Below are positions 85-23,370 of a stretch of DNA of 23,370 bases, piece after piece. Position 1 is the first letter of the stretch; every line of letters begins with the position of its first letter. Both the position numbers and the translations under genes were made by a program. This stretch comes from Leptolyngbya sp. 'hensonii'. Its GTDB lineage: Bacteria; Cyanobacteriota; Cyanobacteriia; GCF-001939115. The notes beneath the pieces were generated by a model. It was not told the origin of the DNA, did not search any database, and worked only from the letters and a program-made list of their open reading frames with translations. Location of the stretch: positions 162,006 through 185,375 of the forward strand of contig NZ_MQTZ01000045.1 in assembly GCF_001939115.1 (NCBI RefSeq), read 5' to 3'.

Positions 85-2214
85 TTATTCCGGCTCACCA
101 ATCAGGACAAACGCAGCCCAGGACTTGGGATTAGGATATTCTTTCAATGTGGCCAGCATCGCCTGACGCAATGCCCTGGCCTTATCCGGTTGGCGTTGCA
201 GGTTCTGGTAAAACTGCGTCATCAGGAAACTGGTAGGGGCATCGGGCACTTGCCAGAGGGACACCATCACCGAAGGGACACCAGCGATCAGGAACGATCG
301 AGCCAGTCCCAACACCCCGTCGGAAAACACAATCCCCTGGCCCGTTTCACAGGCACTCAACACCACCAGTTCAGCCCTCAGTCTGAGCTTGACAATTTCT
401 CCCACCGTCAGGAGTCCGGCATCTCGTCCCGATGGGGCCAGGGCCAAAATCCCTGGAAATAGGAAGGGGCTGTAGTCCCCATCGGGGGGTTGATACAGCC
501 CATTGCCCCGATAGGCATACAAAAAGCCATGGGTTGCCAAGTGAATCAATCGGGCGGTCTGCATGCGTTGCATGACCGCTGCTTTGGTGGCCTGGTTTCC
601 AAGCAGGGGCTGGGTTCCCAACAGCGCTGCGATCGATTTGGCCTCTTTTTCCGCTCCGGGCAGGGCGGCCAGTTGCCGTTGCGGTTGATTGGGGGCCACG
701 GAAACCAGCGGCATGGTGGGATTCCCCACAATCAGGGGCAGATCGCCCGAACGTCCAGGGTTCTGGGCAAGGGTAGTACGCTGTCGCTGGGTCAGGGCCA
801 GTACCCGAATGGCAGGGGCGATCGTCAGGGTATGGCGTTCAATCAAATAGCGGCCCGTTTCATCCTGCAGGGCTGCGAAAGGAACCTGGAATAGTTCCTG
901 ATGGGGCACAAAGATCACCTGCTCCTCTGGATTTTGGGGCAACAAATCCGCGATCGGTTGGATCAAAAGTTGATAGAGGTCTCGCAGATTTTGATTGGCC
1001 ACCGGGTCGATCGGATTAGCCGCAGCCTGATTCACCTCTTCCCTAAAAACGAGCCCACTTCGAGTCACTCCCAAAGACCGCAAACTGCTGGCCACCAGCA
1101 CTTCCAGAGAATTCCTGGGTTGCCCCGATGGGAGGGGTAAACTCACCTGCCGAAAGGTAATCTTGCCCTGGGGAGGAATTACCCAGATGTAGAGGGCTTT
1201 ATTTTCTATTCCCAGGCCAAATCTTTTGTGGTTCAGGATAATAGAATATTGCACGATCGTGGCATTATGAGTTGCAGCTACTTGCTGAAGTTGTTGCACA
1301 GTCGGTTGATAGATCAGTGCAGGGTTGAGGGACTGGAGACCCAAGCGAACTACAGCCGCCTCCGTAAATGCCACGGCTTTCCCCCTTTCGGCAGCTTCCA
1401 GGGCTCGATCGGGTTGGCCCTGGGCCACCAAGATTTCTTGTAACAGGGAATATAAATTCCTCAGTCCTGCCCATTCAAACTCCAGAATTCGGCTCCAATC
1501 AAACTGTAGGGCTTCTCCTGCCGGAATGGGCACAGGTTTGGGAATGGCAGACTCCAACAGGCGTTGTGCCTCCGCCCGATCACCAGCATCGAAGAGAGCT
1601 CCCCCCAGTTGAATCTTGATATATCGGCTGTCTGGATTGAGGGCCAGACCCTGGCGGTAATACTTGAGGGCTTCCGCAGGCTGTCCCAATAGGGCATAGG
1701 TCTGAGCCAGATCAGCCAGAACCCAACCTTTTTCCTCATTACTGAACTCCCCCTTCCCCCTGGTCATGAAAGCCAACTGCTCTCGATAGAGCTGGAGGGC
1801 GGTTTCATATTGCCCCAGCAGCACATAATTGGAGGCCAGCATTCTCACCAGATCGACGTTCAGATCATTGCCCAGCATCTTGTTCAGGGTGTAGGCTTGC
1901 CGCAGGAACTCCACAGCCCTGACTTTTTCGCCGGTGATGTTATACATCGTACCGATCGCCCGCAGCAGAGCCGCTTCCTGCTGGCGATTCCCCGTTTTTT
2001 GGGCATTGGCCAGAGCTTGCTGACAAAGCCTCAACTCACTGGCCGCAGCCCGACGCAGTTCTTCCACCATCAGCAGGGTAACTGCATCCCCCTCCGTGGA
2101 CTGCATGGCCTCTGCACTGATTAAACATTTCTCAGTGAGATCCTGGGCTTTGCCGGGCTCAGGGGTTGCCCATCCGATCGACAACAAAAGGGTTCCCATG
2201 AATCCCAGAGCCAT
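85..2214 (-). CDS. TPR-repeat protein with C-terminal CHAT (caspase-like) domain and N-terminal signal/TM segment
   Basis: 728-aa ORF on the track, which uses a GTG at 2271. The first ATG at 2214 gives a signal-peptide-like N-terminus (MALGFMGTLLLSIGWA). The central region has repeated TPR-like helices (YETALQLYREQ, AEALKYYRQGLALNP). The C-terminus has the CHAT His/Cys dyad context: HLATHG ... VLSACETGQG. Confidence 0.75.
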   Translation of the reverse strand: MALGFMGTLLLSIGWATPEPGKAQDLTEKCLISAEAMQSTEGDAVTLLMVEELRRAAASELRLCQQALANAQKTGNRQQEAALLRAIGTMYNITGEKVRAVEFLRQAYTLNKMLGNDLNVDLVRMLASNYVLLGQYETALQLYREQLAFMTRGKGEFSNEEKGWVLADLAQTYALLGQPAEALKYYRQGLALNPDSRYIKIQLGGALFDAGDRAEAQRLLESAIPKPVPIPAGEALQFDWSRILEFEWAGLRNLYSLLQEILVAQGQPDRALEAAERGKAVAFTEAAVVRLGLQSLNPALIYQPTVQQLQQVAATHNATIVQYSIILNHKRFGLGIENKALYIWVIPPQGKITFRQVSLPLPSGQPRNSLEVLVASSLRSLGVTRSGLVFREEVNQAAANPIDPVANQNLRDLYQLLIQPIADLLPQNPEEQVIFVPHQELFQVPFAALQDETGRYLIERHTLTIAPAIRVLALTQRQRTTLAQNPGRSGDLPLIVGNPTMPLVSVAPNQPQRQLAALPGAEKEAKSIAALLGTQPLLGNQATKAAVMQRMQTARLIHLATHGFLYAYRGNGLYQPPDGDYSPFLFPGILALAPSGRDAGLLTVGEIVKLRLRAELVVLSACETGQGIVFSDGVLGLARSFLIAGVPSVMVSLWQVPDAPTSFLMTQFYQNLQRQPDKARALRQAMLATLKEYPNPKSWAAFVLIGEPE

Positions 2215-2389
2215 TCCAGAGCTGCCCAGACGATGCAAAAATTTCAGCACGGCTGTATCCTCCCCAGGCACTATGTCTGTGCTTTTATTGTCTCAAATGC
2301 AACTGGTATGGCTGGGGGATTGCATCAAAATGCAACCTCTCAATGGAGCTGGGCTAATCTAGTAGCCAGTATTGTCTAGAACTGCAGCT

Positions 2390-14693: not shown

Positions 14694-16112
14694 ATGGTGC
14701 ATGTTAATCTCGAACGGGTCCTGGCCCGAAAAGATGTGCTGCGGGCAATAGCAGAGCTATCGAGAGGGCTGGATTTCGATCTGGGCCTTGCCGATGCAGA
14801 GGGTCAATCCCTCTGGGGCAGCAGGGCCACAACGATGGGTCAGTATCCGATCGAGCTGTCTGGAGAAGTGATTGGCTGGGTCATCGGACCTGAGAGAGCC
14901 GCTTGCATCCCCCCTCTGATTGCCTGTCTGGTGCGACAGGAAGCGGAAAAAGAAAAACTGCGCCAGACGCTACAGGATTTACAGCTCACCCAAGCCCAAC
15001 TGGTCCAGAGCGAAAAAATGTCCAGCCTGGGCCAACTGGTGGCAGGGATGGCCCATGAAATCAACAATCCAGTCAACTTTATCTACGGCAACCTGCGATT
15101 TGCGACGGATTATGTACAGGACTTGATGCAACTGTTGCAACATTATCAGGAGACAATTCCCATTGCCCCCCCTGAATTACAGGCAGAAATTGAATCGATC
15201 GACCTGCAGTTCCTGATGGAAGATCTGCCCAGTCTGCTTTCTTCGATGCGGGTGGGGGCAGACCGCATTCTGGATATTGTTCGCTCCTTAAAGAATTTCT
15301 CCCGCCATGATGAGGCCGATCGCAAAGTCGTTGACCTGCATGAGGGGCTCGATAGCACCTTGATGATTCTGCATAACCGGATCAAAGCCACTGGCGACCG
15401 GCCCGCCATTCAAGTGCTCCAAGAGTACGGCAACTTGCCCCCCATTGAGTGCTATCCCGGTCAGTTGAACCAGGTGTTCATGAATATCCTGAGCAATGCG
15501 ATCGATGCCCTGGAAGAGGTCCTCGTTACCAGCCCACAATCCTCAATCATCCGTGGTCGCTCCCAGGCTCCAGTACCGGCATCAGAAATCATACCCACCA
15601 TTACCATTCGCACTAAAGTGCTCAACCGCGAGTGGGTCAGTATTCAGATCATCGACAATGGTCCAGGCATGCCTGAAGATGTCCTGCAACGAATTTATGA
15701 CCCATTCTTTACCACTAAAGAGGTCGGTCAGGGCACGGGACTAGGAATGTCCATCAGCCACCAAATTGTGGTGGAGAAGCATGGGGGTGTGTTGAAGTGT
15801 CATTCGCAGGTTGGAGCCGGGACCGAATTTGAAATTCAGATTCCGGTTTGCCGCATCCCCACTGCGCCGGATCAATCTAGCCCTACCACTGGGGCGATCC
15901 AGAAACTACCGGATAATGCTGCGATCGTTCCCCCAATCTCCGGAGACACCCCTGCGCTACAACCGGCTGATCTTTTGGCCCGTCACAAACAACTGATCAA
16001 ACGCCTATCCCGATATAGCTCCAACGCAAGCAATATTCCACCTGAACGTCTTTATCAAATGTTTCAGTCCAACCCCATTCTGCTCAAGCTTTATCTGGCA
16101 CTGCTGAATTAA
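14694..16112 (+). CDS. Sensor histidine kinase (cytoplasmic, unknown N-terminal sensory domain)
   Basis: 472 aa with H-box HEINNPVNF, N-box NILSNAIDA, and G-boxes IDNGPGMPE and GQGTGLGMSISHQIV. No TM segments are evident. Confidence 0.85.
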   Translation: MVHVNLERVLARKDVLRAIAELSRGLDFDLGLADAEGQSLWGSRATTMGQYPIELSGEVIGWVIGPERAACIPPLIACLVRQEAEKEKLRQTLQDLQLTQAQLVQSEKMSSLGQLVAGMAHEINNPVNFIYGNLRFATDYVQDLMQLLQHYQETIPIAPPELQAEIESIDLQFLMEDLPSLLSSMRVGADRILDIVRSLKNFSRHDEADRKVVDLHEGLDSTLMILHNRIKATGDRPAIQVLQEYGNLPPIECYPGQLNQVFMNILSNAIDALEEVLVTSPQSSIIRGRSQAPVPASEIIPTITIRTKVLNREWVSIQIIDNGPGMPEDVLQRIYDPFFTTKEVGQGTGLGMSISHQIVVEKHGGVLKCHSQVGAGTEFEIQIPVCRIPTAPDQSSPTTGAIQKLPDNAAIVPPISGDTPALQPADLLARHKQLIKRLSRYSSNASNIPPERLYQMFQSNPILLKLYLALLN

Positions 16113-16155
16113 GAAAAATCGCCATTGCAGCATCCCTCAGCGTTCTTGGTTCAAG

Positions 16156-16626
16156 CTACTGACAGTGATCAAAAATCCACAGAACATCTTGCAGAAACGG
16201 TGGCGTGTTTTGTGTAATGCGGCCTCGCCGTTGGTAGTAATCATAGCTGCCCAATTCAGCGATTACGGCATACTTGGGTGACTCTGTTTCTTGCCCCAGA
16301 AAAAGTGGTGTAGCAGATTTTAAATTCTGATCAAAAAATGTAATCCACCAGCTCTTGCCCTGCTTTGCATTCTTGTTAACCTGATCCAAAAGTCTAATCG
16401 AGCCATAACCACTAGATTGAGTCACGAGAAATCGGTACAGTTGTCTCTGTTGAGGATGGTTGATGACAGCGGTTGCATGGTAAGGCGTATTGGGGGGTGG
16501 TGGACCAAAAACCAATTGAAATCCTTTGCCATCCCCATCTCGGTAAACGCTTTTCGCAATAGGGCAACCCTGGGTTTGGGCTGCTTTTGCCAAGGCTGGC
16601 ACCGACAGCACCACCATAGATAACAT
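16156..16626 (-). CDS. Secreted hypothetical protein (signal peptide MLSMVVLSVPALAKA)
   Basis: The track ORF runs from a GTG at 16653. The ATG at 16626 gives a canonical signal peptide. There is no recognisable domain. Confidence 0.4.
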   Translation of the reverse strand: MLSMVVLSVPALAKAAQTQGCPIAKSVYRDGDGKGFQLVFGPPPPNTPYHATAVINHPQQRQLYRFLVTQSSGYGSIRLLDQVNKNAKQGKSWWITFFDQNLKSATPLFLGQETESPKYAVIAELGSYDYYQRRGRITQNTPPFLQDVLWIFDHCQ

Positions 16627-16844
16627 AAAGCTGAAGCATGATGAGCGATTCACTCTTACCCCACTCCAAATCCTGTAGACTCCCGGGCACCAGGTGCGTG
16701 GAAACTTAGCCTGTGGTCCCCTTTAATATCCAAATTTAAACCGCATCCATCGCTCAATTCTAGTGATTTCAAGACACCCTCCTATTCTGCCGCTAACAGG
16801 CATTGTGCACCCAGATCGATTTCAGAGGTTAATCCACCGACTTC

Positions 16845-17146: not shown

Positions 17147-17773
17147 TTATTCCACCAGATGTTGATTTTCGGGATTAGTTGCAAGGCTCAGTAGAATATG
17201 GATTTGCTGTCGAAATTCAGCAACCAGGCTGCTATGAACATGTTGTTCAAATAGATCGGCAAGTGCCTGGTGTAGCCAGAGGTTATCCTTTTTGCTGGCA
17301 GCAAAGGCTGACCAGGCACTTTCGCCAGTTTGACGCAGGTTAGTAATCAGCGATCGCACATTGTGTAGCTTATCAGCCAGGATGACGCGCTGGGCTTCTG
17401 GCGAAGCATGGCGAATTTGGTTGAGATAGTCGAGCTTATGGCTTTTCCAGGGTTGGGAAGCAGAGCAGGGAGGAATCGTGCAATCATGAACGATCTCGGC
17501 AACTTGTGAACCATAGCGACGCAGAATTTCTGTGTAGATGGGCTCACCCCCCTGATCCTCAACAGCATCGTGGAGGAGGGCGGCGATCGCTTCATCCTCG
17601 CTGCCACCGTCTTCCAGTACCAGGGCGGCTACAGCCATGAGGTGACTGATGTAAGGTACGGCATTTACTTTACGGGATTGGTAGCGATGTAAGTGGAGGG
17701 CATAGGTAAAGGCATCAGCGAAGCGATCGCTCAAAATCACATCAAGGTGGATCTTTTCAGAAACGTGGGTCAT
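17147..17773 (-). CDS. Stand-alone RelA/SpoT-type HD-domain hydrolase (small alarmone hydrolase/Mesh1-like)
   Basis: 208 aa. HRYQSRKVNAVPYISHLMAVAALVLE...AIAALLHDAVEDQ matches the (p)ppGpp-hydrolase HD signature (H..Q.RK.GEPYI.HPL.VA.IL...AALLHDV.ED). The ATG overlaps the TGA of the upstream gene (ATGA at 17770-17773). Confidence 0.7.
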   Translation of the reverse strand: MTHVSEKIHLDVILSDRFADAFTYALHLHRYQSRKVNAVPYISHLMAVAALVLEDGGSEDEAIAALLHDAVEDQGGEPIYTEILRRYGSQVAEIVHDCTIPPCSASQPWKSHKLDYLNQIRHASPEAQRVILADKLHNVRSLITNLRQTGESAWSAFAASKKDNLWLHQALADLFEQHVHSSLVAEFRQQIHILLSLATNPENQHLVE

Positions 17774-19200
17774 AGCAGGTCATCATCATATAACTGCATT
17801 TCTTGCTTGACTTCCTGAGCGGTACGTTGACGCAATTCCCAGGGAAGCAATACTTCTACGTTGGGTCTCCAGGCGCGGAGTCGTTGGAAAACGTTGGGGT
17901 CATCCTGGCGGTAGTATGCCTGATAGTAGGCATCATCGGGGGAGCGATGCTGCCAGAGGCGCAGGAGATGTTCTTGAAGCTGACCAGAGAGGGTCTGACG
18001 GATGAGGAATTGCACCTGATGATAGGGGATTTTGCGAAAGGTGGTATGGCGCAGGGTGTCGCGAATATAGCGGTCATCCCATTTGCGATCGAACCGTAGT
18101 AGAAGTAAGTGGCGGGGTTGGTAGTAATCAAACCCCCAGGCTTCATCCATCGCCGTTTCGATCTCCTCTGGGGTGGGGAGGGTTTGTTTCTGGTATTGCT
18201 GGTAAAGCTTTCGGGGGACAGTGGTATCTTTCCAATTTAGGGAATCGATGGCGAGGATGCGATCGAGGCGGTAATTGCGCCAGTTGAGCGCAGAACTGGC
18301 TGCTTTGGGAAACTGACCATAGGCACACAGGTAGGGTCCACGACGGTAGTAATAGATGCAAACGGGATAGACCACGAGAGGACAACTCCGGGTTTCCCCT
18401 GCACTCTGGTAGTGAAGGCGTACCGGCGGAATGGGGGTTTGCTGCCAGATCTCTGAGAGTAAGGCTTGCCAGTCATCCACGCGATCGAGCTTGTTTTGGG
18501 AAATGACGTAATCGACATGGACAAAGAAGCGGGGGTATCCCTGGAAGGTCCGGGAGAAGGTGTCAGCAATAGCTGCCAGATCGGGCTGGGTAAACAAGGT
18601 GAGCTCCTGCCCGGAGGGAGACTGGATGATTGGGGCTCCAACATGGGGATAATCGGGATAGGAAGTGACTTTTTGAAATTTGTTTTCCTGGATATGGAGC
18701 CATCCTGTGGTAGCAAGGTGATGCAGATCGCTGGAAAGGGTGCGGCGGGTAAACCCAAACAGGCGAGTTTGAAAAAGTAGGTGATCCAGATTGGGCGGCA
18801 GGAGATCATGGTCAATGAGCGATTGGTGCAGTTGATCGCGCTGTTCCTGGATCTGACCTTGCCCAGGCTGCTTACCCTGGTAAACCTGCCACTGGGATTG
18901 GGTGGTAGTCAAATCTGGATGAAAGAGCCAGGCAGCGGTGGGTTTAGTGCAGGGACAGGAGAGACGGTGGAGGGTTGGTTTGGTTTCCCCGCTGGGATGG
19001 TCAGGGGTGAAAAACTGATCGCGCCAATCTGCGTAGCTGAAGGTTTCTGGTAAAGCCAGGGTGTCACCCATTTCGCCGTAGAGTAGATGTAACCAGACCC
19101 ACAGGCGAATGGCTTGAAGGAAGTTTTGCTTGAGAGAACCCCGCACTAACCACTGCAACAGGGGAATGTTGGGAGACTCTTGCCAAAATGCATCAGCCAT
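17770..19200 (-). CDS. WYL-domain protein (putative ligand-binding transcriptional regulator of the CRISPR/defence island; TIGR03985/sll7009-like)
   Basis: 476 aa. A WYL core is recognisable around GPYLCAYGQFPKAASSALNWRNYRLDRILAIDSL (compare the WYLvGwc...RtFRLDRI motif of PafBC/BrxR-type WYL domains). The gene is transcribed divergently from the csx3-like operon and is translationally coupled to the HD hydrolase. Confidence 0.5.
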   Translation of the reverse strand: MADAFWQESPNIPLLQWLVRGSLKQNFLQAIRLWVWLHLLYGEMGDTLALPETFSYADWRDQFFTPDHPSGETKPTLHRLSCPCTKPTAAWLFHPDLTTTQSQWQVYQGKQPGQGQIQEQRDQLHQSLIDHDLLPPNLDHLLFQTRLFGFTRRTLSSDLHHLATTGWLHIQENKFQKVTSYPDYPHVGAPIIQSPSGQELTLFTQPDLAAIADTFSRTFQGYPRFFVHVDYVISQNKLDRVDDWQALLSEIWQQTPIPPVRLHYQSAGETRSCPLVVYPVCIYYYRRGPYLCAYGQFPKAASSALNWRNYRLDRILAIDSLNWKDTTVPRKLYQQYQKQTLPTPEEIETAMDEAWGFDYYQPRHLLLLRFDRKWDDRYIRDTLRHTTFRKIPYHQVQFLIRQTLSGQLQEHLLRLWQHRSPDDAYYQAYYRQDDPNVFQRLRAWRPNVEVLLPWELRQRTAQEVKQEMQLYDDDLL

Positions 19201-19338
19201 ATCCTAGATGGTGCTCTATCAATTTGCCTACTTGTATGAGTGTGCCACAGACATGGAGGAGAGGGTTTCCAATTGAATGCCTCTTAAGCTGATATTGAGG
19301 TTGAGAATCCAACATGTTCCTTTGATAGGATCAGTTTG
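19201..19338. promoter_or_regulatory. Divergent intergenic/promoter region between the WYL-domain gene (minus) and the csx3-like operon (plus)
   Basis: 138-bp non-coding gap between two divergently oriented start codons. This is the likely site of autoregulation by the WYL protein. No operator has been defined. Confidence 0.3.
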
Positions 19339-19695
19339 ATGTCAAACACTATTTATATGGCTGCGATCGAGTTGACGTGTATTTCTCATCGGACAGCATC
19401 AGGGCTCGCCTATCAGCACTTGCATATTCATCTGGCAGCGGAAGATGGGTTGATTGAGCCAGAGGACTTGAAAGGGCTGGTTGTGCCAGACACAATCGTG
19501 TGGAGTCAGGGAGTGGTGATTGAAGGAAAGGCTCCCATTTGGTTGTATGGCTATCTGGTGCATGCCTGTCATCCAGCGGCTTGGGTCGCCTGTTATGATC
19601 CCCGGCTGGGAGATGGGGGTGGGGCAGTAGTGGTAGCCACCCATGCGCGCCAAGTGAAAGTTGGTGAAGTGCTTCTTACGACGTTACCCCTATGA
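19339..19695 (+). CDS. Csx3-like small protein (putative Crn3 ring-nuclease family)
   Basis: 118 aa from the ATG at 19339; the track uses a TTG at 19336. The motif GKAPIWLYGYLVHACHPAAWVACYDPRLGDGGGAVVVATH resembles the Csx3 core as recalled (PIW..YDPRLGAVVV). It is clearly paralogous to the N-domain of the next gene. Its stop overlaps the next ATG (ATGA at 19692-19695). Confidence 0.45.
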   Translation: MSNTIYMAAIELTCISHRTASGLAYQHLHIHLAAEDGLIEPEDLKGLVVPDTIVWSQGVVIEGKAPIWLYGYLVHACHPAAWVACYDPRLGDGGGAVVVATHARQVKVGEVLLTTLPL

Positions 19696-20579
19696 TTCGC
19701 TTAAGCCGAATTGAGTCGAATTATCAGGTTGTGTCGGTGTTACCTCATGCGGAGGGACGGGCGATCGACCCTATAGAACTGATCGACCTGCAGCTCCCTC
19801 ATGATGTGGATCTAAAGCAGCCTGTGATTCTGTTTGGTCCCGTGCCTACTTGGGTTTATGGGCGGCTGGTTGCCCTATGCCGGGAGGCTCCCTGGGTTGG
19901 TTGTTTCTCGGCTCCAGAGGCAGAAGCAGTCGTGATCCAAAGTCGAGTGGCGAATGTGGCAGTGGGGGATGTGATTGCCATTCCGCTGGGGCGGGAAAAG
20001 TTGGCTCCAGCGGTGCTGGTAGTGGGACCGCCAGATAGTGGGAAGAGTGTTTTGTCGAATGCATTGCGCAGGAGTTTACTGGCGCATTATCCGCACAGTT
20101 CTATCTTTTTGCATCGGGCGAATTGGGATGGTGAGGGGAACTGGAGCCATGAGGGGCAAGATCATGCCCTGATCCAGCGTCTTGTGCGGAACCATGAACG
20201 CCGCATTCACGAACGCCCCTCTGCAACAGAATTGATGGCGGCGTTTTTTGCCTATCACGAGGCAGCGGTGATGAATTTGCGGCGGGTGGTGGATCTGGTG
20301 ATTGTGGATGTGGGAGGGAAGGTGCAACCTGAGAAGGCAGGGGTGCGCGATCGCTGTACCCATGGGGTGATTATTAGCCGCGCACCGGAACTGGTAGGGG
20401 AGTGGCGCAGGTTTTGTGAGCCAACGCTGGAGTTGCTGACGGTGATTCACAGCGTACTGGAGGAACGGTGTGAGGTGAAGTCGAGAGTACCCCTGGAGGT
20501 AATTGCGGGACCTTGGTTCCGGGGGAAAACGCACCAAGTGCCAGAGGTGGTGTGGCAGGCAGTGGGGAAATTGTTATAG
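19692..20579 (+). CDS. Csx3-like N-terminal domain fused to a P-loop NTPase (Csx3-AAA-type fusion)
   Basis: 295 aa. Residues of about 40-100 (GPVPTWVYGRLVALCREAPWVGCFSAPEAEAVVIQS) align with the upstream small protein. Walker A VLVVGPPDSGKSVL and a Walker B-like VVDLVIVDVGG follow. Confidence 0.5.
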   Translation: MIRLSRIESNYQVVSVLPHAEGRAIDPIELIDLQLPHDVDLKQPVILFGPVPTWVYGRLVALCREAPWVGCFSAPEAEAVVIQSRVANVAVGDVIAIPLGREKLAPAVLVVGPPDSGKSVLSNALRRSLLAHYPHSSIFLHRANWDGEGNWSHEGQDHALIQRLVRNHERRIHERPSATELMAAFFAYHEAAVMNLRRVVDLVIVDVGGKVQPEKAGVRDRCTHGVIISRAPELVGEWRRFCEPTLELLTVIHSVLEERCEVKSRVPLEVIAGPWFRGKTHQVPEVVWQAVGKLL

Positions 20580-20591
20580 CCCTGGTTAGGA

Positions 20592-21776
20592 CTAGCCAAA
20601 ATCTTTGCCGATACGCTGGTTCAGATCTAAAAGGCAAGCTTGTCGCTCACCAAGTGTTTGACTGGAGGTTTCGATCTCAAACCGAACTATCCAGGTGCCG
20701 TTGCTCAGCGTTCCTTCCAAGGCATCTCCTTGCAAACGAAAGGAATTGAGGCTGGAGAGTGCGGGATTCCAGTAGAAGGTGCGACAGCCTGTGACATAGG
20801 GGCAGACATCGGTGATGCGTTGCAGGTAACGGATGATTGGGTCTCTGGCATTACCCCAATTATGGTTAGACATCTGGGGTTTACGTTTCTGTTGCGGGGG
20901 GACTGGAGATGGCAAATGCAACGCCATTTGTGGCAGTTGTCGTTCTCGAAATGCCTCATAAAATACCTGACCTGTGGGCGACAGGGTGATGTAAACCTGC
21001 CCGTCAATCTCTACTCGTTCTACCAGGGGTTCCAGGGCTTCTGACCAGTCATCCTGCACGGTTTCCCAGGGGGTCTGGTCGTGGGAGTTGCGCCCCAAAG
21101 CAGTGAGCCAGCCGTTATGCTGAATCCACAGGTCAAAATCCAGGCTGACGGGCATGGGTGGAAAGGCGATGATTTCGCTAAACCGTTCATGTTTGTAGTA
21201 AACCGGAACTTTGAGCGCCTGCCCCAATAGAACGGCGATCGCAATTTGTGCTTTATACCCCCCCGTGGCGTTGATCGCGCAATACTCGGCTCCGCGCAAC
21301 CGCAATCCGCAGGACATTTGCTTAACCAGGTTGCGTAACCCATCAGTGCGAAAGGTTTTGGGATGATTGTCTTGAAGCCCTTCTACTCGATACGGAGTGG
21401 CGGTATGCCCCAGTGCCTGGTAGTAATGAACCAGGAGGGTGGCGATCGCAGTGCCTTCGTCAGTGTCAGAGTGACAAAACAGGAGGGTGGCGGTAGGGGT
21501 GACATAGCCCCGCTGGAGCAAATCACCAATGGAGTTGATTTCGGCTCCACATAGACGCAGGGTGGGCGGAAGCTGGCTTAAATGCAGGGCGAGGGTAACC
21601 CAATCAGTATGCTCAAAGGTGGTTTTGAGGGTGGCAACGGTATCAGTGGTGAGATGGGCACGATCGGGGACAGGCTGTTTTTGGAGCCACTCATCGTAAT
21701 GGTCGGGGGCAGGCAAGGTTCTAAGATTGGGATTAAACAGGCTCGTACCAACGGTACAGATAAGGGTATGACGCAT
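20592..21776 (-). CDS. CARF-domain protein (cyclic oligoadenylate sensor) with an uncharacterised C-terminal domain of about 190 aa
   Basis: 394 aa. The N-terminus MRHTLICTVGTSLF is the CARF motif-I glycine/serine loop. AINATGGYKAQ is the CARF motif-II GG(Y/F)K. The C-terminal half has no convincing HEPN Rx4-6H motif, no clear PD-(D/E)xK motif and no HTH. Confidence 0.6.
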   Translation of the reverse strand: MRHTLICTVGTSLFNPNLRTLPAPDHYDEWLQKQPVPDRAHLTTDTVATLKTTFEHTDWVTLALHLSQLPPTLRLCGAEINSIGDLLQRGYVTPTATLLFCHSDTDEGTAIATLLVHYYQALGHTATPYRVEGLQDNHPKTFRTDGLRNLVKQMSCGLRLRGAEYCAINATGGYKAQIAIAVLLGQALKVPVYYKHERFSEIIAFPPMPVSLDFDLWIQHNGWLTALGRNSHDQTPWETVQDDWSEALEPLVERVEIDGQVYITLSPTGQVFYEAFRERQLPQMALHLPSPVPPQQKRKPQMSNHNWGNARDPIIRYLQRITDVCPYVTGCRTFYWNPALSSLNSFRLQGDALEGTLSNGTWIVRFEIETSSQTLGERQACLLDLNQRIGKDFG

Positions 21777-21794: not shown

Positions 21795-22172
21795 TTATTG
21801 GGGATATAGGTTTATATTCACATTGCAGGCACCCAGCGGATTGACGCAGATTGGCATACTATAGCGAACTCGAAAAACCCCTTCTGCACCGGAGGGAACA
21901 TTAAAGAAAATGGTTTCGTTCCCAAGCTTCTTACCCCGAGCAAATCGCTGACCTGTCGTGTCGTAGAGTTCCACATCCACATCGCCCAGAACAGACGTGG
22001 CTTCGAGGATGTAGCCTCCTGGTCTATTGATTGTCAATCTCACCCAATCCGTCCCTCCGGCATAAAGGGGGCGTACTGCTTCAGCTTTCGCTGTAAGTGG
22101 GTCCAATCTTTCCATCAGCACGATCGTCAGACACGCAAGGGAAACTCGGCTCATCAAGCGTTTGTAGTTCAT
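21795..22172 (-). CDS. Small secreted protein with a PPC (pre-peptidase C-terminal)-like domain
   Basis: The track ORF runs from a TTG at 22202. The ATG at 22172 gives MNYKRLMSRVSLACLTIVLM. LGDVDVELYDTTGQ resembles the PPC GD(A/V)DLYLY motif. It lies 18 bp upstream of the CARF gene, probably in the same transcript. Confidence 0.35.
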   Translation of the reverse strand: MNYKRLMSRVSLACLTIVLMERLDPLTAKAEAVRPLYAGGTDWVRLTINRPGGYILEATSVLGDVDVELYDTTGQRFARGKKLGNETIFFNVPSGAEGVFRVRYSMPICVNPLGACNVNINLYPQ

Positions 22173-22360
22173 GGTATTGTTCCTATTTTTTGAAACCACC
22201 AAACCAGGGGTTGAGAGGTTGCGGTTGGTGGGGCTGGTTTAGTGCAACTGGTCATAGCTTATTCGATGTCTGGAAGGGGGTACTTCCAAGGAGCGATCGC
22301 GGGTTGAAGGGATGGGGCAATCGGGCAGTGGAGTTTTTAGGATCGTGGATTTAATAACTC

Positions 22361-22662: not shown

Positions 22663-22687
22663 GTTTTTTCAACAGTCCCCAATTGGG
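22663..22687. repeat. Degenerate, internally deleted CRISPR repeat (GTTTTTTCAACagtCCCCAATTGGG) at the array trailer end
   Basis: Matches the repeat 5' part GTTTTCAAC and 3' part CCCAATTGG, with about 13 bp deleted between them. It lies 8 bp before the first intact repeat. Confidence 0.4.
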
Positions 22688-22695
22688 ACGACTGA

Positions 22696-23368
22696 GTTTT
22701 CAACTATTCCAATTTGACCCAATTGGTAGGGGTCCTGAGTGCTCAGGAGCAAGCGGATAGGGATGCCGCTAGAGAGTTTTTCAACTATTCCAATTTGACC
22801 CAATTGGTAGGGACAACTCTCGTCGTGACTCTCCGAGTCTCGATGGTTCTAAGGTCGGTTTTCAACTATTCCAATTTGACCCAATTGGTAGGGAAGTGGT
22901 TGCAAAATGCAAAGACGGAGTTGTTGTGGAGAACTCCGCTGGGTTTTCAACTATTCCAATTTGACCCAATTGGTAGGGGGTTGCGAAGTAGTTGGGAATC
23001 TTTGTTTTCTTCGAGAAAGTTTTCAACTATTCCAATTTGACCCAATTGGTAGGGTGTGCTTGCTGCGGTTATTGCACTGGTGATTTGGCTTCTAGTTTTC
23101 AACTATTCCAATTTGACCCAATTGGTAGGGTTTGTTTTTTTGAAAAAGCAGGAGAATTTCCCATGTCCAACAAAGGTTTTCAACTATTCCAATTTGACCC
23201 AATTGGTAGGGGGTCATTGTTTCAGTTGTTTATTCCCTTTTCAAGGAGAAGTTTTCAACTATTCCAATTTGACCCAATTGGTAGGGACTTTGTTTACACC
23301 TGGAACGAAACCAACAATGGCACTACCACCTAGTTTTCAACTATTCCAATTTGACCCAATTGGTAGGG
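22696..23368 (-). CRISPR. CRISPR array with at least 9 identical 36-bp repeats GTTTTCAACTATTCCAATTTGACCCAATTGGTAGGG and 8 spacers of 39-49 bp. The array continues beyond the window end.
   Basis: Repeats lie at 22696-22731, 22777-22812 (first base T), 22858-22893, 22943-22978, 23019-23054, 23095-23130, 23176-23211, 23251-23286 and 23333-23368. The reverse complement ends ...ATAGTTGAAAAC, the usual 3' GAAAC-type handle. This, together with the degenerate repeat at the left end, suggests minus-strand transcription with the leader to the right of the window. There is an internal 6-bp palindrome CCAATT/AATTGG. Confidence 0.95.
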
Positions 23369-23370
23369 AG

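Follow-up and report, generated by a model that had tools for sequence, protein, structure and literature searches.

Within a 23,370-nt stretch of the genome of the cyanobacterium Leptolyngbya sp. 'hensonii' (contig NZ_MQTZ01000045.1, positions 162,006 to 185,375; hereafter the window), we found two csx3-type genes in tandem, which probably make up an operon bordering a type III CRISPR-Cas locus. The upstream open reading frame (ORF1; 19336/19339..19695, forward strand; 118 amino acids from the ATG at 19339) encodes a stand-alone Csx3/Crn3 protein, and the downstream one (ORF2; 19692..20579, forward strand; 295 amino acids) encodes a second Csx3 domain, termed Csx3' here, joined to a P-loop nucleoside triphosphatase (NTPase). 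The pair very probably consists of an intact Crn3 and a pseudo-nuclease Csx3' fused to an NTPase of the SIMIBI class. For the fuller reading of this type III-edge operon, in which Csx3' would be a non-cleaving sensor or adaptor mounted on an NTPase switch beside the Crn3 encoded by ORF1, we estimate a probability of roughly one half.

The common origin of the two proteins is evident from their pairwise alignment (34% identity over 92 amino acids; BLASTP, E = 2e-13) and from matches of both to the Pfam model Cas_csx3 (PF09620; cut-off 21 bits), at E = 1.9e-32 (111.4 bits) for ORF1 and, above the same cut-off, at E = 1.8e-17 over residues 23-95 for ORF2. An earlier note, made from the letters of this DNA, had described tandem Csx3 paralogues of which the second is a fusion with a P-loop NTPase, and had named this profile search as its check; the description is borne out, and the outcome that would have counted against it, a lack of Csx3 matches, did not occur. 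With the Crn3/Csx3 equivalog model TIGR02579, ORF1 scored 93.8 bits, above the cut-off of 55.4, and ORF2 51.7 bits, slightly under it.

Csx3, or Crn3, is a ring nuclease acting on cyclic tetra-adenylate (cA4), which is sandwiched by two Csx3 dimers (PMC7371418). In the archaeal protein AfCsx3, the D69 face of this composite site consists of S44, G45, R46, I49, D69 and R71, and the H60 face of H57, H60, H80 and Mn2+; the H60A and D69A variants are each inactive alone, and a mixture of them regains activity (PMC7371418). Aligned to AfCsx3, whose chains it matches at E~1e-12 (PDB 3WZI, 6VJG and 6YUD), ORF1 retains G45, I49, H57, H60, D69, R71 and H80. It thus resembles the archaeal enzyme in its catalytic residues, and probably also in its type III accessory setting, and differs from it in the substitutions S44E and R46K, in four inserted residues (GDGG) that follow the DPRLG motif, in being bacterial and in being, in this lineage, always paired with a Csx3'-NTPase gene. 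On this residue evidence ORF1 can be taken, with high confidence, to be a bona fide Crn3/Csx3 ring nuclease. Its orthologues begin with M-[TAP]-A-I-E-L, which corresponds to the ORF1 sequence MAAIEL starting at the ATG at 19357; because the orthologues start at this equivalent ATG, the true start is probably 19357, giving a protein of 112 amino acids.

The N-terminal domain of ORF2 (19692..19997, forward strand) presents the opposite picture, in that the Csx3 fold is kept and the catalytic and cA4-contacting side chains have all been replaced. Relative to AfCsx3, the replacements are H57A, H60R, D69S, R71E/P, H80R and R46P, so that none of the five catalytic residues (H57, H60, H80, D69, R71) remains, while the Trp that forms the dimer is still present. 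Examining 112 family members revealed that variation is practically absent from the fold residues G45, P48 and W50 and present at the catalytic positions: His occurs at position 57 in 20 sequences, at position 60 in 16 and at position 80 in 1, Asp at position 69 in 36 and Arg at position 71 in 48. The replacements themselves follow a consensus, with F/Y at position 44 in 103 of the 112 sequences and R/Q at position 80 in 101, and R/Q at position 60 is likewise a newly conserved residue type in the Csx3' of the tandem subtype. The AlphaFold2 (AF2) model of the domain is confident throughout (predicted local distance difference test, pLDDT, 79-97). From these residue patterns, the fused Csx3 domain of the tandem subtype is predicted to be a pseudo-nuclease and not a Crn3-type nuclease, and its changes look like re-specialisation rather than decay. 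Since the Csx3' of ORF2 is without the residues that AfCsx3 needs, any chemistry of cA4 reset is assigned to ORF1 alone.

The second half of ORF2 (20004..20579, forward strand) is a P-loop NTPase, and the Walker A and Walker B motifs that the earlier note had placed there were both found on the forward strand: Walker A reads GPPDSGKS (residues 112-119; 20025-20048) and the Walker B-like motif reads VDVGG, of the DxGG type (residues 205-209; within 20295-20318). Between them lies an invariant WDGEG loop (within 20118-20141, forward strand). The key Walker A and Walker B residues are unchanged through 98 homologues, and the invariant positions (G112, S116, G117, K118, S119, W145, D146, G147, G149, D206, G208 and G209), which comprise Walker A, the loop as a possible switch I and the DxGG motif, would fit a competent SIMIBI-type NTPase. 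Where the earlier note spoke of an 'AAA' domain, as the literature does, we found instead a SIMIBI-class fold, with similarity to MinD, ParA, BioD and SRP accompanied by Walker A and a DxxG-type Walker B. The hallmarks expected of an AAA+ protein are a C-terminal helical lid, sensor motifs and an Arg finger. An AAA or AAA+ identity was rejected, because the domain did not match AAA+ by fold or family model and did match the SIMIBI class, and the 'AAA' domain of ORF2 is thus MinD/ParA/BioD-like and not AAA+.

Within the SIMIBI class the domain stands apart. Its identity to MinD, ParA, NifH, Get3, SRP/FtsY, BioD and the CTP synthase N-domain is only 9-14%, it has no NKxD guanine motif, and its Walker A, (V/G)GPP(D/N)SGKS, is without the signature lysine of the deviant MinD/ParA form (xKGGxxGK[ST]), which places it outside that subfamily; the invariant (A)NWDGEGN loop, conversely, is specific to the NTPase family of ORF2. 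With 366 representatives in a set of 1.84 billion clusters, this family is small, and it is closely tied to Csx3: when 10 representatives of unusual length were scanned against Pfam, 8 had a Csx3 domain and 2 had no match of any kind, and the Csx3 and NTPase domains occur in three orders among the representatives. Individual architectures include Csx3-NTPase-TPR-WD40 (P0136, 906 amino acids), NTPase-Csx3-NUDIX (P0206, 586 amino acids) and Csx3-NTPase-Csx3 (P0146, 447 amino acids).

To place the pair among its relatives we compared the window with 74 related loci, which were drawn from genome, metagenome and plasmid sequences and classed by hidden Markov models (HMMs). Class A (25 loci and the window) has a stand-alone Csx3 directly upstream of a Csx3'-NTPase, with one single-chain fusion; class B (about 21 loci, for 17 of which the upstream DNA extends over 700 nt or more) has a lone Csx3-NTPase; and class C (about 20 loci) has the order NTPase-Csx3. 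The catalytic residues are distributed unevenly over these classes. The stand-alone upstream Csx3 of class A (n = 27) has H57 in 25 sequences, H60 in 24, D69 in 25, R71 in 26 and H80 in 25, and the fused domain of the same class (n = 26) has them in 3, 4, 10, 10 and 1, respectively. In the fused domain of class B (n = 21), H57 is found in 17, H60 in 19, D69 in 19, R71 in 20 and H80 in 14, and in that of class C (n = 19) the corresponding counts are 0, 1, 0, 10 and 1. Because the catalytic residues are conserved in this class-dependent manner, it can be predicted that loci of classes A and B preserve nuclease competence in one of two places, the fused domain itself or a neighbouring stand-alone gene, and that the fused copy loses this competence once a separate Csx3 copy exists. 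Stand-alone Csx3 proteins are, moreover, closer to the fused domains of class B (50% identity) than to Csx3' (32%), and Csx3' evolves faster, with a mean within-group identity of 44% as compared with 62% for the stand-alone proteins. This regularity, of a nuclease in cis or next door, is undescribed in the literature we searched, which did not extend to the CARF classification of Makarova et al. 2020. The 585 homologues of ORF2, mostly cyanobacterial, are labelled Csx3 by their sources.

Class C and the triple fusions fall outside this regularity, having nuclease competence in neither place. The triple fusions (P0024, P0084, P0098, P0104 and P0110) are natural Csx3-Csx3'-NTPase single chains of about 440-452 amino acids, and give Rosetta-stone support to a physical partnership of Csx3 and Csx3'. 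Their N-terminal Csx3 carries H57Q, H60Q and D69E and retains R71, from which it can be argued that such an assembly, with a non-His Csx3 at its N-terminus, can act as a sensor without cleavage. The earlier note had proposed a combined ring-nuclease/ATPase device; the partnership it implied is plausible, given the tandem arrangement in all 25 related loci of this type and these natural fusions, and the part that does not hold is the fused Csx3, which is not a ring-nuclease module.

The junction between the two genes varies among the tandem loci. In the window it is the ATGA overlap that had been noted before, and it is present at 19692-19695 (forward strand), where the sequence has the start codon of ORF2 over the TGA stop of ORF1. 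The same 4-nt overlap, or nearly so, occurs in five other loci (L001, L015, L023, L031 and L049), and other loci have 22-159 nt between the csx3 and csx3'-NTPase genes. In 10 of the 25 split loci (L002, L003, L006, L007, L009, L012, L013, L018, L026 and L027), both genes lie in one frame, with a single stop codon and an open linker between them, and here one point mutation would interconvert the split and fused forms. Read-through at the single in-frame stop was also considered, and was rejected because chance would put roughly one third of such gene pairs in the same frame, close to the 40% observed.

We propose the following mechanism for the pair. By homology to AfCsx3, ORF1 would cleave cA4 to A2-P in a Mn2+-dependent manner, in a composite site formed by two dimers, and would thereby switch off cyclic oligoadenylate (cOA) signalling. 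Csx3' would serve as a non-cleaving sensor or adaptor, binding cA4 on its own or else capping an ORF1 dimer loaded with cA4, much as the Csx3-like domain of Cat1 is glued together by cA4 without cleaving it. In doing so it would control whether the fused SIMIBI-class NTPase switch dimerises and how active it is, and ORF1 would limit the lifetime of the switched state; the operon as a whole would be regulated by the divergently encoded WYL protein described below. That Csx3' binds a ligand, that the two proteins assemble with each other and what the NTPase then brings about are steps that we infer, and we rate the sensor/adaptor role, taken by itself, at somewhat less than an even chance.

Several observations weigh against this proposal. 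Csx3' is also without R46 and R71, the side chains through which the D69 face chiefly contacts cA4, and may thus not be a cA4 binder at all. The loss of H57 and H60 from the N-terminal Csx3 of the triple fusions means that a nuclease partner is not obligatory. No cas10 lies inside the window, and the type III cas10 is inferred from synteny. Finally, deletion of slr7080, which encodes a distant relative of ORF2 in Synechocystis, left plasmid interference unchanged (PMC6546367, PMC9676260).

A more specific version of the proposal treats the fused copy as a repurposed receptor. Here, cA4 on the D69 face of Csx3 would be capped by the His-free face of Csx3', with its R60 and R80, and the resulting non-cleaving heteromeric sandwich would activate the SIMIBI NTPase, while Csx3-Csx3 stacking would be a competing off-pathway reaction; a nucleotide-level product of the NTPase might then be reversed by a SpoT-like HD protein or a fused NUDIX domain. 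We offer this chain of steps tentatively and, taken whole, consider it unlikely. If it were true, it would constitute a new output of type III CRISPR systems, being neither a nuclease, a protease, a TIR nor a deaminase.

A different role for the NTPase, which we think doubtful and less probable than the receptor just described, would be to reset Csx3 filaments: Csx3' would dock on stacks of ORF1 and cA4, and ATP would drive the disassembly or turnover of the Csx3 filament, with faster release of product. The pair would then be a ring nuclease boosted by ATP, akin to the device for resetting cOA signalling that the earlier note had suggested. It is known that complex formation and product release set the pace of AfCsx3 turnover and that inactive variants form fibres with cA4 (PMC7371418), and the conserved adjacency and natural fusions of the two proteins fit such a role, as does the fold match to SIMIBI ATPases such as MinD, ParA and Get3, which are assembly/disassembly switches. 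However, class B proteins unite an intact nuclease domain and this NTPase in a single chain, and the NTPase has been retained in the triple fusions even though both of their Csx3 domains lack the nuclease histidines. Less probable again is a scheme in which Csx3' is a dimerisation scaffold, the NTPase is a small-molecule kinase or ligase (resembling BioD, CTP synthase or APS kinase) that modifies a nucleotide or RNA end, the SpoT-like HD protein or a fused NUDIX domain reverses the modification, and ORF1 works independently. This scheme is entirely speculative; neither a substrate pocket nor an additional domain for substrate binding was identified in ORF2, whose NTPase domain has only about 190 amino acids, and the newly conserved residues that Csx3' carries where the ligand was once contacted favour a ligand-facing role over that of a pure scaffold.

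That ORF2 is itself a ring nuclease, and the pair therefore two redundant cA4-degrading enzymes, is very improbable: in the NCBI annotation both members of such pairs are called crn3 and ORF2 does match Cas_csx3 in Pfam, but the five residues to which the catalytic roles have been assigned (PMC7371418) are all replaced in ORF2, its equivalog score lies below the TIGR02579 cut-off, and the catalytic positions are variable over the 112 homologues. The idea of Csx3' as a functionless duplicate in decay could draw on its lower within-group identity and its variable catalytic positions, but we reject this reading as hardly credible, given an intact frame in all 26 tandem loci, invariant fold residues, a new consensus at positions 44 and 80 and a confident AF2 model.

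Returning to the proposed sensor/adaptor operon, its surroundings include a candidate regulator. Directly upstream and divergent lies a gene for a helix-turn-helix (HTH)-WYL protein of the CRISPR-associated family TIGR03985 (17770..19200, reverse strand; TIGR03985, E = 3.2e-92; PADLOC HTH-WYL, E = 5.5e-156). Such a divergent TIGR03985 WYL gene accompanies the module in 20 of the 25 loci of class A and in 16 of the 21 of class B, and is absent throughout class C; the protein is a conserved partner of the csx3 operon and probably its regulator. The divergent intergenic region between the two transcription units (19201..19338) is presumed to be a shared promoter/operator region; a scan of 19100-20750 for sigma-70 consensus promoters and terminators gave nothing over the shuffled expectation.

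Coupled to the WYL gene by a 4-nt overlap is a gene for an HD protein resembling small-alarmone hydrolases of the RelA/SpoT hydrolase family (17147..17773, reverse strand; PF13328 HD_4, E = 1.1e-17). It matches RelH (PDB 7qoe, E = 3.1e-40) and Mesh1 (E = 1.2e-12), has an intact HD motif (LLHDAVED) and is covered by no PADLOC model. The HD_4 gene occurs in 15 of 25 class A loci, and HD and TIGR03985-WYL genes, as divergent neighbours, also adjoin slr7080 on the Synechocystis plasmid pSYSA. The HD_4 association is paralleled by the NUDIX fusion mentioned above, both being nucleoside-polyphosphate hydrolases.

On the other side, convergent with ORF2 and with its stop codon 12 nt away, is a gene for a CARF7-family protein with a Cas_APE2256 CARF domain and a DUF2103/RelE-like C-terminal region (20592..21776, reverse strand; PF09651, E = 1e-32; PADLOC CARF7--CARF_DUF2103, E = 1.8e-117, and CARF+RelE, E = 3.3e-50). 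Its orthologues adjoin the csx3 pair in other loci as well (L001/L016, L015 and L012), and its domain content makes it a candidate cOA-responsive effector or ring nuclease. SyCsm6, a Synechocystis member of the CARF+RelE group, is reportedly a degrader of cOA and not an RNase. The locus may accordingly encode two ring nucleases. Next comes a conserved 135-amino-acid ORF with a hydrophobic N-terminal segment (21795..22202, reverse strand), situated between the CARF gene and the array leader; it has no match in Pfam, NCBIfam or PADLOC, and is 71% identical to its counterpart in the closest related locus (L015, 12193-12594).

The module is followed by a type III-like CRISPR array (22696..23370, forward strand), in which the 36-nt repeat GTTTTCAACTATTCCAATTTGACCCAATTGGTAGGG is present at least 9 times and which continues past the end of the window. 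It was found by a repeat search, Tandem Repeats Finder having missed it. Repeats are spaced 75-85 nt apart, and the spacers measure about 39-49 nt; a further copy, at 22665-22685, is degenerate. The array also accounts for the ORFs listed at 22714-23333, which are artefacts. Nodosilinea PCC 7104 has the same gene order and a near-identical repeat, and there a 46-unit array separates CARF7 from cas2/RT-cas1/cmr2; other relatives of the pair adjoin Cas10 and RAMP genes. Because the syntenic loci carry Cmr2/Cas10, RT-Cas1 and RAMP genes, the pair in the window is, by gene order, probably an accessory module of a type III system.

The remainder of the window is ordinary cyanobacterial chromosome, with genes for a Photo_RC protein of the photosynthetic reaction-centre family, an S-adenosylhomocysteine (AdoHcy) hydrolase and an ABC transporter. 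The block HD-WYL-Csx3-Csx3'NTPase-CARF7 appears to move as a unit. In a 92%-identical relative (L015, 1-7340) it abuts genes of the defence type, for a DUF1156 methyltransferase, an SNF2 helicase and Uma2, and in the window the same HD-to-CARF7 block abuts a histidine kinase instead (14694-16653). A TPR-CHAT protein is also encoded in the window (85-2271, reverse strand; CHAT, E = 1.4e-69), 15 kb from the module, and one related locus (L018) has two large TPR-CHAT genes no more than 10 kb from the csx3 pair, possibly by coincidence in cyanobacterial genomes.

Csx3-"AAA" proteins are among the commonest accessory proteins of cyanobacterial type III CRISPR systems, and reviews and genome annotation take them for ring nucleases fused to an AAA+ ATPase. 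Our analysis recasts the ATPase as a switch or kinase of the MinD/ParA/BioD class and not an unfoldase-type AAA+, and suggests that the 'crn3' annotation of the fused gene is probably wrong as to function.

Among known systems, the closest is the Csx3-NTPase fusion described by Shah et al. as cluster 35, 'Csx3-AAA' (CYB_0599, Slr7080), along with a cluster of reversed domain order, cluster 67; cOA was suggested there to control the ATPase allosterically (PMC6546367). As the earlier note had stated, this fusion, whose family is named "Csx3'" by the White laboratory, is known from bioinformatics only, with no function assigned to the ATPase (PMC6546367, PMC7371418, PMC12409355), and our literature search found no functional study of a Csx3-NTPase fusion. 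By its match to the corresponding PADLOC model (PDLC01045, E = 6.5e-61, residues 29-295), ORF2 is to be counted as a further member of this already known family, with which it shares its architecture, its length of about 300 amino acids, its cyanobacterial host and, probably, its type III neighbourhood. The published Csx3-AAA is a Crn3 ring-nuclease domain with an AAA/AAA+ domain, whereas ORF2 has a degenerate Csx3, a SIMIBI NTPase and an intact Csx3 directly upstream.

Slr7080 itself (pSYSA; L075, 3647-4579), which co-fractionates with the CRISPR3 Cmr complex (PMC8136920), is distant from ORF2, with an NTPase match of E = 7.6e-21. Our Csx3 HMM gave no alignment to its N-terminal domain, and no class was assigned to Slr7080; by eye, this domain is without the H57 and H60 histidines. 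The label 'putative Crn3 ring nuclease' for Slr7080 may be unsafe. The reversed form C3a67, or 'AAA-Csx3' (cluster 67, Caur_2269; PADLOC PDLC01059), has an NTPase of the same family as ORF2 (E = 9e-26) and a Csx3 domain that is degenerate too (H57 in 0/19, H60 in 1/19, D69 in 0/19). It differs from ORF2 in its domain order, in having no WYL or HD gene within 4 kb and in having no stand-alone Csx3 in the loci sampled.

The remaining comparison is with Cat1 (CRISPR-associated TIR 1, PDB 9MUD), in which the effector is an N-terminal TIR NADase and not, as in ORF2, a C-terminal NTPase. Cat1, unlike ORF2, has no paired active Csx3. The Cat1 type is further marked by cA4 binding and by head-to-tail oligomerisation driven by the ligand, of which cA4 binding is a putative property of Csx3'. 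Matching stretches of equal length would equate K225 of Cat1 with H60 of AfCsx3. What ORF2 has in common with Cat1, going by the published properties of the latter (PMC12162218), is a non-catalytic Csx3-like putative sensor fused to an effector domain.

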